A stretch of DNA of 64,000 nt from an uncultured Candidatus Saccharimonas sp. (GTDB lineage: Bacteria; Patescibacteriota; Saccharimonadia; Saccharimonadales; AWTP1-31). Below the pieces are notes generated by a model that had not been told where the DNA came from, searched no databases, and worked only from the letters and a program-made list of their open reading frames with translations. The DNA lies in NCBI GenBank assembly GCA_943354005.1, contig CALRBE010000005.1, positions 21,910-85,909 of the forward strand. The letters run 5' to 3'. This document shows positions 21,272 to 28,856 of this stretch, piece after piece. Every line of letters begins with the position of its first letter. The first letter of the stretch is position 1. Both the position numbers and the translations under genes were made by a program.

Positions 21272-21348
21272 GGGCCAGTAGCTCAGCTGGTTAGAGCACC
21301 TGCCTCTTAAGCAGGGTGTCGAGGGTTCGAGTCCCTCCTGGCCCTCCA
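21272..21348 (+). tRNA. tRNA-Lys(CTT)
   Basis: Cloverleaf by hand: acceptor GGGCCAG/CTGGCCC, anticodon loop CTCTTAA, T-loop TTCGAGT. CCA is encoded. Confidence 0.92.
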
Positions 21349-21393
21349 ATACGCTTATGTTAATTTAGTATATGGTTTCCTATAATTCAAATT

Positions 21394-21705
21394 ATGACAA
21401 AGAAAAAAGAAAATAAATCTGCAAGTATTAAAACAATTGATGTAATCGGATTTTTGACCGCATTAATATATATGCAGTCAGTGCTTACCGTAGCTCATCA
21501 CACAAGTATGTGGGTACACGATGGTTCAACTCACACAGTAGGACCACCGGCAATACCTGCGCTTGTTACTGGACTACTGATTGTTGCTTACTCTACTTAT
21601 AAGAATAAATTGTCATTCACGACATTGAATGTGATAACGCTTACTATTATTGCAACTGCAAGTTTATTCTGGCTTTCAGGATTACGAACTAACTTTTATT
21701 TCTAA
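21394..21705 (+). CDS. cassette 1: small 3-TM membrane protein
   Basis: 103-aa ORF. TATAAT (21381-21386) lies 7 nt before the ATG and there is no SD. Confidence 0.55.
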   Translation: MTKKKENKSASIKTIDVIGFLTALIYMQSVLTVAHHTSMWVHDGSTHTVGPPAIPALVTGLLIVAYSTYKNKLSFTTLNVITLTIIATASLFWLSGLRTNFYF

Positions 21706-21724
21706 ACTTTCGCTACTAGATATA

Positions 21725-21770
21725 ATAGTTGCAATAGCGTCTACTATGGCCCTCCATACCGCTTATGCAT
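21725..21770 (+). repeat. tRNA-Lys 3'-end-like junction repeat R1
   Basis: ATAGTTGCAATAGCGTCTACTATGGCCCTCCATACCGCTTATGCAT. GGCCCTCCA plus CGCTTATG matches the tRNA end and flank at 21340-21359. Confidence 0.8.
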
Positions 21771-21798
21771 AAAACAGAGGTAATTTGCCTCTGTTTTT
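21771..21798 (+). terminator. intrinsic terminator attached to R1
   Basis: AAAACAGAGG-taatttg-CCTCTGTTTTT. Near-identical to the hairpin behind tRNA-Lys(TTT) at 37331-37358. Confidence 0.75.
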
Positions 21799-21813
21799 GA
21801 TATACTGTTGCAC

Positions 21814-22728
21814 ATGGACGAAGACAAAAGACATAATAGTGAACAAAAAAAAACGACTCAAGAACTAGTAGAGCAATTTGGTGTTGATTATCCGATTGAA
21901 GACATAGATAGCCCGGAAAATCCTCGGCTCGGCGAGGTTGCTGCTCTCGATGCCGAACTTAATGGAAGCCACCAATCATTAAGCGAAGAAGAGTTTAGAG
22001 AAATAGTTGAAAACGGTGGTGTAATTATTAGTCATGTAGGACCTGGTAATAAACTGATAAGTGAAGCGAGCTTAATGTTAACTAGCGTCGAAGGGGGCTC
22101 TAGTCCGCTACAGAGAGGCTTGCCAGAATGGCTGGCTTACTGTGATGGATCCGCTGTTTCTAAGGATTACAGGGGCAAGGGTCTCCAGAAGCAACTATTG
22201 AATGCCAGAGAAGCAGTGGCAAAGGAGGAAGGTAAATTAGCAATTGCGGCGTCCGTGAGGCAAAGAAATGTCACAAGTATCAAATCAATGATTAAATGTG
22301 GTTATATAATGATAGCAGATTCACCTCATTATTATGGCGATGAAGTAAAAGATGCGCGTGTAGTGATGCTCAAGGACTTTGAGTTAGGTAATCCATTCAA
22401 AGATCTAGACAGCGATCACGAGATGCTAGAAGATAGCTTGCGTGGAATCGTCGAGCCTAGTGGTATACAAGAAAAGCTAGCTAGCGGTTCAGATGTTATT
22501 TCAATAGCAGTTCAGCAGAGCGACGAAGTAGACGAAGTCTACAATCAAGCGGTAGCAACATTGTTAAGGAATGGCTATATAGGAGTAGCTTGTAATGATA
22601 TAGACATCGGCGATAGTGATAGCGAAAGATCCGATGCGATGACATTCGTAAAACTGGAATCGTTACCACTAGACGTTGCTGAAGCGATCAAGCTTAGGCA
22701 GGAAGAGATCCAATCTATTGTTGGATAA
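21814..22728 (+). CDS. cassette 2: GNAT-family acetyltransferase-like protein
   Basis: GNAT motif A (DYRGKGLQKQLL). TGaTATACT lies 7 nt before the ATG at 21814. The track start is a TTG at 21808. Confidence 0.6.
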   Translation: MDEDKRHNSEQKKTTQELVEQFGVDYPIEDIDSPENPRLGEVAALDAELNGSHQSLSEEEFREIVENGGVIISHVGPGNKLISEASLMLTSVEGGSSPLQRGLPEWLAYCDGSAVSKDYRGKGLQKQLLNAREAVAKEEGKLAIAASVRQRNVTSIKSMIKCGYIMIADSPHYYGDEVKDARVVMLKDFELGNPFKDLDSDHEMLEDSLRGIVEPSGIQEKLASGSDVISIAVQQSDEVDEVYNQAVATLLRNGYIGVACNDIDIGDSDSERSDAMTFVKLESLPLDVAEAIKLRQEEIQSIVG

Positions 22729-22734
22729 CCGGTT

Positions 22735-22774
22735 CAGTTGTAACAGCTTTTTCTATGGTTTCCCATGATAGCAT
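22735..22774 (+). repeat. junction repeat R2 (degenerate)
   Basis: CAGTTGTAACAGCTTTTTCTATGGTTTCCCATGATAGCAT aligns with R1 (GTTGCAAtAGC...CTATGGCCCTCCAT). Confidence 0.5.
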
Positions 22775-26762: not shown

Positions 26763-27359
26763 ATGCAACTGTTAAAAGAAATAACTTCGGATGAGATGAT
26801 TGGAGAGTTTCTCAAAGCCGAACTTCATTCATCACGTTTCCGCCGAGGCAGCTTGAGGGCTCTCAAAATGCTAGGGTATACCGAAAGCCTACTCGAGAAT
26901 CCAAATTATGGCGACGCTACCCAGAATGAAAAACGAGCTAAAGTTTTAGGTTTATGTAGGGGTTGGCCTGACGCAGAGCTTTTCACAAATTTTCCCAGCG
27001 ATACACATTGGTACAGGATCAATTTTTCGATAAATGAGCTTAAGCGAGTATATCGTCTAAAGAGTAGTTCAGATATGGCAGATAGTGAACGATCGCTCCT
27101 TGCTACGGCAAGACTTGTTATGAAGGGTCAAGCCGTACATAACATTAACAACGAACTCATCTACGAGATTCGCAAAAAAATTGAAGCAAAAGAACAGCTT
27201 CCTCCAATAATTATAGTAGCGGCTAAACAAGAAGGTAGGAAGGTATTGGTTGAGGGACACTCTCGAGGTGTCGCCTACTGCTCTTTCGAAAGTCTATACT
27301 ATGATATACCTGCAATTATGGGCATATCAAATGATATGAATGACTGGGCTTACTTTTAG
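26763..27359 (+). CDS. cassette 7: hypothetical protein
   Basis: 198 aa. TGtTATAAT lies 6 nt before the ATG at 26763. VLVEGHSRG faintly resembles the ParB/Srx DGHHR motif (weak). The track ORF from 26643 was trimmed. Confidence 0.5.
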   Translation: MQLLKEITSDEMIGEFLKAELHSSRFRRGSLRALKMLGYTESLLENPNYGDATQNEKRAKVLGLCRGWPDAELFTNFPSDTHWYRINFSINELKRVYRLKSSSDMADSERSLLATARLVMKGQAVHNINNELIYEIRKKIEAKEQLPPIIIVAAKQEGRKVLVEGHSRGVAYCSFESLYYDIPAIMGISNDMNDWAYF

Positions 27360-27360
27360 A

Positions 27361-27400
27361 ATAGTTACAGCGACAATGCATACATCACTCCATTCACAAA
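27361..27400 (+). repeat. junction repeat R7 (degenerate)
   Basis: ATAGTTACAGCGACAATGCATACATCACTCCATTCACAAA, starting 2 nt after the cassette 7 stop. Confidence 0.5.
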
Positions 27401-27516
27401 CACGTTTAAGCTCCTCTTACTATGGAGTTTCTTCTATTTACTGATACACTTAAAACTATAAACTAAACGTAAGGATTATTATTAAAAATCAAAAAGGGTT
27501 TACTGTTGTCGTTGTC

Positions 27517-28239
27517 TTGATTGTTGTAGTCGTGATTTTCCTAACTTTAGGGATTGGAATATTCGCGTTTGGGCGCATAAGTGCTGGCAGTAAAGTTAAT
27601 GCCGATTCAACCACTGTCGAAAATTTAGAAAAGGCTCGTCTACAGCTTGCAGCAGCTGTTACCGAGTCAAAAACAATTCCCGATTCAGTAACTACCGCAG
27701 AGGGAGTCAGCTATGAACGAAAGGATAATCAAACCGCCGAACTTTGTGCATCCTTTGGTGTTCCCCGGGGTGGTAAGAATGATAATTTCGTAAGTCCTGT
27801 TGACGCGTTCAAGATGCTATTTTCCGCCAAGACCACAACTTCAAAGGTATATCGAGATGATGTAGACTTTGCTAAGCACTCTAAGGGTCGCAACTGTTTC
27901 GAGATTAGCTATGCTCCAATCAATGATGCTTACCAGGAGCAGTACAGAAATACCAAGAAGAACTGGACCGTATGTGATTCACTCAGACAATATGTTGCCA
28001 AGTTTACTGGTCAAACCATTAAAGGTTTTACTATCGGTGGACCGTTGACAACCAACCCTGGTATGGGTGGAGGTAATGGTGTCCTTGGTCAAGATGTTGA
28101 TGCATACGACGCATCCTGCAAAAAGATTCCTGTGTCTTCACTTAAGGTTGGCGACAAAGTTGAAATATATTTTGAAGATGGACCAAAGAATGGCAGCGAG
28201 CAAGTGTACTTTGTAAAAGCGCTTAAAAAAGAATATTAG
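27517..28239 (+). CDS. cassette 8: pilin-like N-terminus, secreted/anchored protein
   Basis: The track start is a TTG at 27517. The in-frame upstream codons read I-K-N-Q-K-G-F-T-V-V-V-V-L from an ATT at 27481, which lies 5 nt after AAGGA. This resembles a prepilin leader, but position +5 is V rather than E. Confidence 0.5.
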   Translation: MIVVVVIFLTLGIGIFAFGRISAGSKVNADSTTVENLEKARLQLAAAVTESKTIPDSVTTAEGVSYERKDNQTAELCASFGVPRGGKNDNFVSPVDAFKMLFSAKTTTSKVYRDDVDFAKHSKGRNCFEISYAPINDAYQEQYRNTKKNWTVCDSLRQYVAKFTGQTIKGFTIGGPLTTNPGMGGGNGVLGQDVDAYDASCKKIPVSSLKVGDKVEIYFEDGPKNGSEQVYFVKALKKEY

Positions 28240-28269
28240 CAATCCTGCTTTTCTGCTGAAACTAAAAAT

Positions 28270-28318
28270 ATAGTTGCTATAAGCTCCACGGTTTAACTCC
28301 AAAGGTGCCAAAACAGAG
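28270..28318 (+). repeat. junction repeat R8 (degenerate)
   Basis: ATAGTTGCTATAAGCTCCACGGTTTAACTCCAAAGGTGCCAAAACAGAG. Retains the ATAGTTGC head, the CTCCAA core and the start of the AAAACAGAG hairpin. Confidence 0.55.
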
Positions 28319-28408
28319 ACCAGTTAGTTCTAATGGCAACAGCTCTGTGCCACTAACACTAATTCGTATCTTTTATTTAGTTCTAGTCTTTTTTGGTATA
28401 GTAAGGAT

Positions 28409-28822
28409 ATGGTTACTTCATACGGAATAATTCCAATACACAAGTCAGAGGCAGGAACAAAGTTGTATCTTCTGCTTCGAAACCATGGTGGTTTCTGGAG
28501 TTTCCCAAAAGGGCACCCAGAAGGTAAAGAAACGCCTAAAGAAGCAGCAGTTCGAGAAGCTTTCGAAGAAACAGGAATTGTATTAAGCGAGTCTGAACTT
28601 GGGGAATCAGTGCAGTACGAATACGAACAACCTATAAAAGGCATTATGCAGACCAAGCGAATTGTTCTTTTTCCAGCGATAATAAAATCAAAAAATGTAA
28701 ATATGCAGGCTCTAGAAATCACACATCACGATTGGGTACCTTTTGATAAAGCTATTTCGCTTATAGGTTTAGACTCTGTCATTGAACCACTATCTAAAAT
28801 TGAAGACAGCTCAATTTATTAA
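28409..28822 (+). CDS. cassette 9: NUDIX hydrolase
   Basis: Complete Nudix box [23 protein letters not shown]. TGgTATAGT lies 6 nt before the ATG. Confidence 0.85.
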
Positions 28823-28856
28823 CAATAAGCCATACAATGATCCTCCAAATTAGTTC
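28819..28856 (+). repeat. junction repeat R9
   Basis: TTAACAATAAGCCATACAATGATCCTCCAAATTAGTTC aligns with R5 and R6 (AGCCAAGACAATAGCCCTCCA). Confidence 0.6.

Follow-up and report, generated by a model that had tools for sequence, protein, structure and literature searches.

An array of small gene cassettes behind tRNA-Lys in Saccharibacteria, and the case for its growth by site-specific recombination

Introduction

How does a genome that is tiny and holds few recognisable mobile elements, like those of Saccharibacteria and other bacteria of the candidate phyla radiation (CPR), gain and lose genes? The question is raised by a locus in a 64-kb stretch of a freshwater Saccharibacteria (Candidatus Saccharimonas-like) genome, referred to here as the window. 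In the window, an array that opens with the tRNA-Lys(CTT) gene (21272-28847) holds nine copies of one repeat, R1-R9, and short, mostly single-gene units lie between successive copies. A sequence-only reading of the window had proposed that the array was built by tRNA-anchored accretion of cassettes, that the repeat is a site borne by the cassettes themselves, and that the system differs from both integrons and tRNA islands. Our analysis supports this proposal. We conclude, with a probability of roughly 0.6, that the array consists of miniature mobile cassettes that accreted at the 3' end of tRNA-Lys by conservative site-specific recombination, with a recombinase that is not linked to the array. 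No description of such a system in Saccharibacteria or other CPR bacteria was found in the literature that we searched.

Results

Definition of the repeat site

The repeat array was identified in the window by two routes. When the half-pattern ATAGCNNNNACNATRGCCCTCCA was searched for with ≤ 3 mismatches, five matches were found against an expectation of 0.12, far above shuffled controls, and their positions were those of R1, R3, R4, R5 and R6. A weight matrix was then trained on the copies of other genomes only, covering positions -34 to +1, which are numbered from the A of CCA here and throughout this paper. A scan of both strands of the 64 kb with this matrix gave eight matches above 4 bits, all on the + strand and all within the array: R1 (50.7 bits), R4 (42.5), R5 (31.5), R3 (23.0), R8 (22.0), R6 (20.4), R9 (14.3) and R2 (4.1). 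These are eight of the nine copies that the sequence-only reading had located. The ninth, R7, is degenerate or gapped and was missed by the ungapped matrix; its position corresponds to a canonical junction in strain L164. Seven copies are thus statistically solid, and R2 and R7 are decayed copies backed by position and comparison. A repeat search of the window recovered the same families and tied them to the tRNA end, and an Rfam scan of 21000-29500 (E ≤ 1) reported tRNA only.

The consensus of 213 distinct copies, in which some positions were preset in one copy per locus by the pattern used for the metagenome scan described below, is A(-34)-N3-TAGTTGC-R-ATAGC-n-T-c-y-AC-r-r-TGGCCCTCCA-A, with a length of ~36 nt. 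This site is composed of an arm of ~25 nt (TAGTTGCRATAGC-nTCyAC-rr) joined to the core TGGCCCTCCA, a sequence identical to the final 10 nt of tRNA-Lys and present at every junction. The arm contains a direct repeat, CRATAGC / CRRTGGC, with a 12-nt period (seen in the logo, at positions -24 to -6 of the copies), and this is not a dyad. In the window, two repeat subfamilies had been described, marked by GTCTAC and CAAGAC; they correspond to two arm subtypes, GTCTACGR (R1, R3, R4) and CAAGACAA (R5, R6), both of which recur in other genomes. When R1, R4, R5 and R6 were folded as DNA on both strands, the z-scores ranged from -2.5 to +1.4 and no common structure was found.

The arm positions that have no coding role (A at -34, GTT, ATA and AC) are 92-98% conserved across lineages in which the flanking histidine kinase is only ~50% identical. 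Such conservation of non-coding positions across divergent lineages points to recognition by a protein, and we read the site as a protein-recognised recombination site that is kept by selection for mobility.

As to the origin of the site, both the repeat family and the alignment confirmed that its 3' half is the tRNA 3' end plus trailer. The accompanying statement that the 5' half is unlike the tRNA T-arm held in part: the arm is element-borne, but its GTTGCGA resembles the T-loop GTTCGA, and an intermediate is present in L132. There (5753-5800), the array opens 40 nt past tRNA-Trp with TTTAGTTCGTGTCCCAGATGGCCCTCCA, which resembles a truncated T-arm plus acceptor of tRNA-Lys. To judge from its sequence, this form, which stands between the T-arm and the cassette arm, hints that the arm descended from the T-loop region.

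Distribution of the site and its link to tRNA-Lys

With a profile built from the strong copies, four further Saccharibacteria species were found to hold 4-5, 4, 1 and 4 copies, always downstream of tRNA-Lys(CTT) and on the same strand, and none were detected in the other-species loci that lack tRNA-Lys(CTT). A metagenome scan with a degenerate pattern of 18 fixed bases yielded at least 120 loci, from which all metagenome counts given here are drawn. After profile iteration, these loci contained 221 copies, and 220 of them were co-oriented within their own locus. Among the matches listed, the largest arrays were 12 copies in 12.9 kb (L115) and, at a relaxed threshold, 13 copies in L132.

To relate the arrays to tRNA genes, we defined as informative the 45 loci with at least 2.5 kb of sequence upstream of the first copy. 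A co-oriented tRNA-Lys, mostly CTT and sometimes TTT, lay ahead of the array in 40 of them. One of the five exceptions is L132, which opens with an apparent truncated tRNA-Lys 3' end; L095, L109 and L123 look like chance pattern matches, of which some are expected in so large a collection. The remaining 56 kb of the window had no copies, and neither did the 10-kb flanks that border the arrays at other loci. The motif is therefore not a generic element of the genome.

The tRNA-Lys(CTT) gene of the window (21272-21348, + strand; called by ARAGORN, Rfam tRNA 72 bits), with its core TGGCCCTCCA at 21339-21348, is the primary attachment site heading the array. Among the matches listed, thirteen metagenome arrays begin at tRNA-Lys(TTT), and the system has this gene as its second attachment site, unoccupied in the window strain. 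In the window, tRNA-Lys(TTT) and its native trailer and terminator occupy 37300-37448 on the - strand (tRNA 37372-37448, hairpin 37331-37358).

Two related loci show a further arrangement. In L064 (1923-2459), two full tRNA-Lys genes stand 382 nt apart, and at the place of the second gene L043 has a 1.5-kb cassette ending in a site copy.

Breakpoints and movement of cassettes

Orthologous regions were compared among strains and species, and they were not collinear; the insertions and deletions ended on the repeats (L001, L002, L164, L166 and L173). In L001, whose upstream sequence is ~92% identical in nucleotides, the tRNA CCA runs straight into what in the window is the post-R8 sequence (after 28301). 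Between the same two landmarks, L002 holds four unrelated cassettes, and the post-R8 sequence follows its last strong copy. Closer relatives were obtained from GROS21 metagenomes, as sister strains with an identical RimK and DNA 95-97% identical to the window; they were found by exact-protein look-ups with RimK and RecA, the same look-ups returning nothing for LemA and only the same strain for the histidine kinase. In the sister strains L164, L166 and L173, an extra 579-bp cassette with a 165-aa open reading frame (ORF) lies exactly after the CCA of R9 and is bounded by two site copies. These three strains also lack the R6-R7 cassette, and in L164 a canonical junction lies between the NAGPA and 235-aa cassettes. 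The second attachment site behaves in the same way: two cassettes, each ending in a site copy, directly follow the CCA of tRNA-Lys(TTT) in L153 (1400-2700), where the window has none.

Cassettes also recur in different contexts. Four complete cassettes were met again in other arrays, where the sequence to either side of them is unrelated. One of them, 99.4% identical, is the fifth cassette in L059 and the first after the tRNA in L128, and the identity ends at +1 to +3, past arm and core. In L103, the cassette that directly follows tRNA-Lys(TTT) is the pyrophosphatase cassette of the window, with 87-89% identity over the whole length between cores.

The exchange point was mapped with nine pairs of copies that have a common upstream gene and unlike downstream sequences. 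In all nine, identity stops 0-2 nt past CCA. It is unbroken through the arm in six pairs; the remaining three are more diverged (85-92% identical upstream), and their arms differ as well. In the converse case, the identity of the left side begins at TGGCCCTCCA. The exchange point therefore lies within TGGCCCTCCAA(T), at positions -9 to +2, and an exchange there leaves the tRNA intact.

The fixed distal copies (R2 and R7-R9) have decayed while the consensus of the pool stays sharp, as would be expected if intact sites matter only for mobility. Contigs from independent assemblies of the window strain and its sister strains break at or next to repeat copies: L149 starts at the equivalent of window 21773, just after R1, and L169, L170, L167 and L171 also start at such places, for example just before the Nudix cassette. 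These breaks are consistent with population heterogeneity at the array or with breaks induced by the repeats.

Anatomy of the cassettes

With boundaries set at successive cores, at least 151 distinct cassettes were obtained, with a median length of 731 bp (interquartile range 538-1103). Most contain one ORF. The longest ORF is on the + strand in 82% of the cassettes and covers a median of 77% of the unit. In 42 of 124 cassettes, the stop codon lies inside the arm, as a TAG ending at -28 (23 cassettes), a TAG ending at -19 (10) or a stop ending at -34 (9).

Directly past the core, many cassettes carry ATnCGCTTATGCTTAAA, a G+C-rich hairpin and a T-run, the same elements that form the native trailer and terminator of tRNA-Lys. 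The hairpin is located ~17 nt inside the left end of many cassettes, varies in sequence from cassette to cassette, and resembles an ordinary terminator. Downstream of this, 59 of 202 copies had an extended -10 box (TGnTAnnWT) followed by a start codon, where shuffled sequences gave 4.3, and in 46 of the 59 the two were exactly 6 nt apart. The spacing of 6-7 nt between the -10 box and the start codon implies leaderless mRNAs. Judged by these sequence features, many cassettes appear to carry a promoter and a terminator of their own; a generic scan for sigma-70 promoters and terminators showed no enrichment. A second common class of left end opens with AGCATAAGC, the reverse complement of the GCTTATGCT box of the usual trailer, at the same distance from CCA. 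The idea that GCRATAGC of the arm pairs with GCTTATGC of the trailer was considered and rejected: such pairing is found in R1 only, is not conserved, and the second trailer class has the box inverted.

The cargo is highly diverse and mostly singleton, and includes APH, GNAT, methyltransferase, EamA and Nudix proteins and small kinases, as well as YafQ/RelB toxin-antitoxin genes. FtsX, GT2 and epimerases were found as further cargo among the 25 commonest of the 160 Pfam families matched by 150 proteins in or near arrays. Transporters and cell-wall hydrolases were also noted.

Cassettes of the window

From 21272 to 28847, every called gene is on the + strand, as the sequence-only reading had stated for the cassette genes. 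Cassette 1 (21349-21756) contains an ORF for a 103-aa membrane protein (21394-21705) and ends in R1 (21722-21756). Its left end resembles the tRNA trailer (ATACGCTTATG), a TATAAT box precedes the ATG by 7 nt, and a relative 79% identical sits at a later position in L049. Cassette 2 (21757-22765) starts with a terminator hairpin (21771-21797), followed by TGATATACT 7 nt ahead of the ATG of a GNAT acetyltransferase gene (21814-22728; Pfam Acetyltransf_1), and ends in the decayed R2 (22731-22765). Cassette 3 (22766-23406) encodes a 105-aa protein with three transmembrane segments and a PQ motif (23056-23373), whose gene has an 81%-identical counterpart in array L085; R3 (23372-23406) has the core GGCCCTCTA.

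Cassette 4 (23407-25244) has two genes, for a GNAT protein (23581-24558) and an M23 peptidase (24518-25225), supported by Pfam and gene calls, and the M23 gene stops at a TAG (25223-25225) within R4 (25210-25244). Cassette 5 (25245-25676) has a hairpin and then TGTTATAAT 7 nt ahead of the ATG of the pyrophosphatase-like ORF (25304-25648, Pfam), whose stop TAG (25646-25648) is within R5 (25642-25676). Cassette 6 (25677-26705) encodes a 139-aa secreted protein (25889-26308) and a NAGPA remnant (26435-26677, Pfam NAGPA), which stops at a TAG (26675-26677) within R6 (26671-26705). The remnant is the 3' third of a phosphodiester glycosidase, the full 314-aa gene of which is present in strain L164 (474-1590). 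In the window (25722-26677), its 5' two-thirds are replaced by the gene of the 139-aa secreted protein, and the breakpoint is not at a repeat copy. In strain L164, at 1587-3270, a 330-aa ORF with a promoter-like box of its own lies between partial duplicates of two genes, the 5' portion of the 235-aa gene and the 3' portion of the 198-aa gene; from these duplications, illegitimate rearrangement also happens inside arrays.

Cassette 7 (26706-27392) has a terminator hairpin, TGTTATAAT 6 nt ahead of the ATG, a 198-aa ORF (26763-27359) and the degenerate R7 (~27358-27392, core CACTCCA). Cassette 8 (27393-28301) has a 235-aa ORF (27532-28239) and R8 (28267-28301, core AACTCCA). Cassette 9 (28302-28847), with a Nudix hydrolase gene (28409-28822, Pfam NUDIX) and R9 (28813-28847, core GATCCTCCA), is an older cassette that is common to different species.

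Several details of the sequence-only reading were verified in this comparison. The AAAACAGAGG...CCTCTGTTTTT hairpin carried by R1 and R6 is the same as the one behind tRNA-Lys(TTT) at 37331-37358, and no hairpin directly follows tRNA-Lys(CTT). The TAG stops of the M23, pyrophosphatase-like and NAGPA genes do fall inside the repeat. As for the cargo, Pfam recovered the GNAT, M23, pyrophosphatase-like, NAGPA and Nudix assignments and did not confirm the SemiSWEET assignment of the 105-aa protein in cassette 3, which is possibly SemiSWEET-like.

The histidine kinase just upstream of the array is 94% and 84% identical to the kinases of two Saccharibacteria metagenome-assembled genomes. Elsewhere, other variable places were observed. 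In L001 (358-1003), an insertion of ~650 bp with a small membrane-protein ORF directly follows the CCA of tRNA-Arg(TCG), where the window has only 11 nt (14929-14942); the insertion shows no obvious repeat of the end of tRNA-Arg and no obvious copy of the Lys motif. At 42084-42758, the window has a 221-aa ORF flanked by ruvB and a pilin-like (N_methyl) gene; the sister strains L151, L154 and L157 lack it or have other ORFs in its place, and no motif is present. From RNase Y to the E1-E2 ATPase (50158-57520), the window has a bestrophin-like gene, tRNA-Pro, a SASA esterase and a 1421-aa CLIPPER/HATPase protein, and this stretch is replaced by four short ORFs in several sister strains. Around 55000-58000, the cumulative GC skew peaks and the gene orientation turns from mostly + to mostly -; this region may be the replication terminus, ~30 kb from the array.

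Discussion

Proposed mechanism and rival explanations

Each of the three comparisons on which the accretion proposal could have failed, namely the occurrence of the motif away from tRNA-Lys, the collinearity of orthologous regions and the similarity of the copies relative to chance, came out in its favour. In the mechanism that we propose, a cassette in circular form would integrate either at the end of the tRNA or at a junction anywhere in the array, and would be excised again by recombination between a pair of junctions. The left end, which copies the tRNA-Lys trailer (ATnCGCTTATGCTTAAA, hairpin and T-run), would restore a terminator for the sequence upstream. The gene for the recombinase would lie at another place in the genome or on a helper element. 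The enzyme is probably of the tyrosine type, a class favoured here because it tolerates hybrid sites and so would permit tandem accretion.

A number of observations weigh against this reading, and the first group concerns the enzyme. In agreement with the sequence-only reading, which had noted no integrase or transposase in the 64 kb, no integrase, transposase or other recombinase domain was found in the window plus 10 kb on each side (84 kb). A crude screen of ~0.84 Mb of array-bearing sequence with a regular expression for the Box II motif detected no tyrosine recombinase; a phmmer search of ~1.35 Mb with an approximate E. coli XerD query, run without a positive control, gave nothing below E = 0.18; and no tyrosine integrase was among the 25 commonest of the 160 Pfam families matched by the 150 proteins in or near arrays. 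The second group concerns the exchange itself. No stretch that the copies share perfectly is longer than the core, and recombination through short homology would map there too. The pyrophosphatase cassette has different arm subtypes in the window and in L103. Rearrangements have also taken place off the site, namely the NAGPA truncation and the partial duplications in L164. As a test of polarity, site quality was compared with distance from the tRNA, and no significant gradient was found (16 loci, p = 0.23). A terminal-overlap test detected no circular cassette contigs. On viral contigs, no copy of the site was found: the strict motif had no matches, the looser motif had 12 chance matches without the arm, and the tRNA-Lys 3' fragment matched one unrelated high-G+C contig (L135).

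The genes that do recur next to arrays across loci, when 1178 ORFs were clustered, are housekeeping genes: FolD, MurD, MurB, response regulators, RimK and DnaJ. Among the matches listed, the only Resolvase-domain ORFs were two, in L095 and apparently in L109, at single isolated matches with no tRNA-Lys. These are large serine recombinase ORFs, that of L095 (137-1885, - strand) running into tRNA-Gln, and they probably belong to unrelated integrative elements met through chance pattern matches.

The strongest rival dispenses with a dedicated enzyme. DNA taken up by natural transformation would be exchanged by RecA or through short homology, with the repeats serving as portable homology, and the motif would be conserved because it travels with a shared cassette pool or acts in termination or insulation. 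No recombinase was linked to any array in the screens made, the window encodes RecA, RuvABC, a type IV pilus ATPase and a pilin, and ComEC is found near arrays elsewhere, all of which suit this view, as do the illegitimate breakpoints within arrays and the fact that the core is the longest identical block. However, 10-12 identical bases are far under the usual minimum for efficient RecA recombination. The mapped junctions all fall in one 12-nt window, with the variable arm positions staying with the upstream gene, and the conserved arm, the strict co-orientation and the confinement to tRNA-Lys are left unexplained. We regard this explanation as unlikely, at odds that still deserve attention.

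A second rival would treat the repeats as scars of integrase-bearing islands, prophages or tycheposon-like elements that entered serially at tRNA-Lys and later decayed. Tandem integration at tRNA 3' ends that leaves partial repeats is well documented, for tycheposons (10.1101/2020.12.28.424599) and for the accretion of cis-mobilizable elements (CIMEs) (PMC5704250). Scars of that kind fit poorly with units that have a median of 731 bp and one ORF, that move intact between arrays and strains with exact core-to-core ends, and that each keep the element-borne arm, which is unlike random decay; moreover, the crude screens of ~1.35 Mb of array-bearing sequence found no integrase genes or fragments. 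This origin is improbable.

A route through single-stranded DNA or RNA is more improbable still. Either an HUH (IS200/IS605-like) transposase would act in trans, or reverse transcription would switch template at 3' CCA ends. Insertion is indeed orientation-specific and immediately 3' of a short fixed sequence, no target duplication is made, and the hairpin ~17 nt inside the left end of many units would suit such a route. But folding of either strand gave no consistent hairpin for the arm at the right end, and the left hairpins differ between cassettes and resemble ordinary terminators. A unit also holds its own putative terminator and promoter ahead of the transcription start, elements that would be missing from an RNA copy. 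Neither a reverse transcriptase nor a Y1 transposase family was among the 25 commonest of the 160 Pfam families. Finally, a generic intergenic element, such as a repetitive extragenic palindromic (REP)-like or terminator module with no role in mobility, would account for the intergenic position of the motif beside terminator-like hairpins, and is refuted for practical purposes by its absence from the rest of the window, its restriction to tRNA-Lys and its place at the exact ends of presence/absence polymorphisms.

Significance

Site-specific accretion of cassettes thus remains our preferred reading, and the locus looks like a dedicated hotspot of gene turnover, widespread (at least 120 loci) and variable among strains that are 95-97% identical. 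The cargo resembles that of integrons, and a relevance to the life of an epibiont on antibiotic-producing hosts is plausible. If the reading is true, integron-like cassette capture would have arisen more than once and from different parts; a compact 36-nt site would be defined, together with a recombinase worth finding, and docking at a specific site could become a tool for the genetics of Saccharibacteria, in which manipulation is otherwise difficult. The motif would likewise be a simple handle for mining the accessory gene pool of CPR bacteria from metagenomes.

Comparison with known systems

Elements that integrate at tRNA genes share part of this logic. In Prochlorococcus tycheposons, integration at the 3' end of a tRNA-type gene regenerates the gene, repeats its 3' fragment and pushes older insertions outward (10.1101/2020.12.28.424599); the same accretion logic is described for Islander-type islands and for the ssrA islands of Dehalococcoides (PMC4383910, PMC3146451). 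Here too the tRNA is intact, its 3' fragment is repeated, and empty and occupied sites can be compared (L001 with the window; the window with L153). Those elements, however, measure kilobases to tens of kilobases and bring their own integrase and often replication or packaging genes, whereas the unit described here is a single-gene unit of ~0.7 kb with no recombinase, 10-12 nt of identity with the tRNA and an element-specific arm.

CIMEs come closer in one respect. They are units flanked by att sites, without integration genes, that stand in tandem at the 3' end of streptococcal tRNA-Lys with a recombinase supplied from elsewhere; they are defined as decayed integrative and conjugative elements (ICEs) or integrative and mobilizable elements (IMEs) and are mobilised once a functional relative integrates alongside (PMC5704250). 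The units of the present arrays are likewise flanked by sites and without recombination or transfer genes, but they are uniform, minimal and numerous (at least 151 distinct). No recombinase or remnant was found in or next to the at least 120 arrays and no parent ICE or IME was seen, no search having been aimed at conjugation or relaxase genes. A helper acting in trans for the mobility of the arrays is possible.

REP elements and bacterial interspersed mosaic elements are dispersed genome-wide, unlike the present repeat, whose eight matrix matches in 64 kb are all in the array. Palindrome-associated transposable elements derived from IS200/IS605 also differ, in that the right end does not fold here, the left hairpins are variable, and conserved subterminal hairpins are not present at both ends.

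The pdif modules of Acinetobacter plasmids belong, with IMEX, to the elements that exploit Xer recombinases. They are small gene modules with their own promoters and short sites at their borders, and the recombinase that moves them is encoded outside the module. The pdif sites are 28-bp XerC/XerD dyads in alternating orientation, carried on plasmids. The cassettes resemble them as small, apparently self-promoted modules bounded by short sites and encoding no recombinase. They are unlike them in having no 11-6-11 dyad, in occurring as direct copies only, and in using two attachment genes, tRNA-Lys CTT and TTT, ~16 kb apart, instead of a single dif. A dif-like 11-6-11 reading of the arm was rejected, since it would put the crossover at -18 to -13, where it would disrupt the T-stem of the tRNA, and the exchange points were mapped to -9 to +2; a scan for dif-like patterns gave AT-rich chance matches only.

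The closest functional parallel is with integrons, above all sedentary chromosomal integrons, and with clusters of attC sites lacking integron-integrases (CALINs). In both, one attachment point is followed by co-oriented, short, mostly single-ORF cassettes, each ending in a recombination site that the ORF abuts or overlaps, with the crossover at the 3' edge of the site. Both have diverse cargo, mostly of no known function, with toxin-antitoxin genes, and share cassettes between arrays at different positions. In our arrays, as in integrons, co-oriented and mostly single-ORF cassettes are the units of gain, loss and reshuffling. The attC site consists of imperfect inverted repeats (R''/L''...L'/R', with a GTTRRRY core) that fold as single-stranded hairpins. 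The site described here is instead a conserved sequence of ~36 nt with a direct repeat, in contrast to the palindromic attC, which is defined by structure. A tRNA gene end takes the place of attI, no intI adjoins the array in the window plus 10 kb on each side, and the host is a CPR bacterium. By their sequence, many cassettes would also have a terminator and a promoter of their own, whereas integron cassettes are promoterless and read from the promoter Pc. Based on these comparisons, the best reading is that the system is integron-like in function and not a member of the integron family. We would put at even odds the wider view that Saccharibacteria own an independently evolved capture platform, with a tRNA-Lys dock, a 36-nt site, leaderless units and an unlinked, possibly new recombinase; there is a realistic chance that this enzyme and its site define something more distinct than site-specific cassette accretion.

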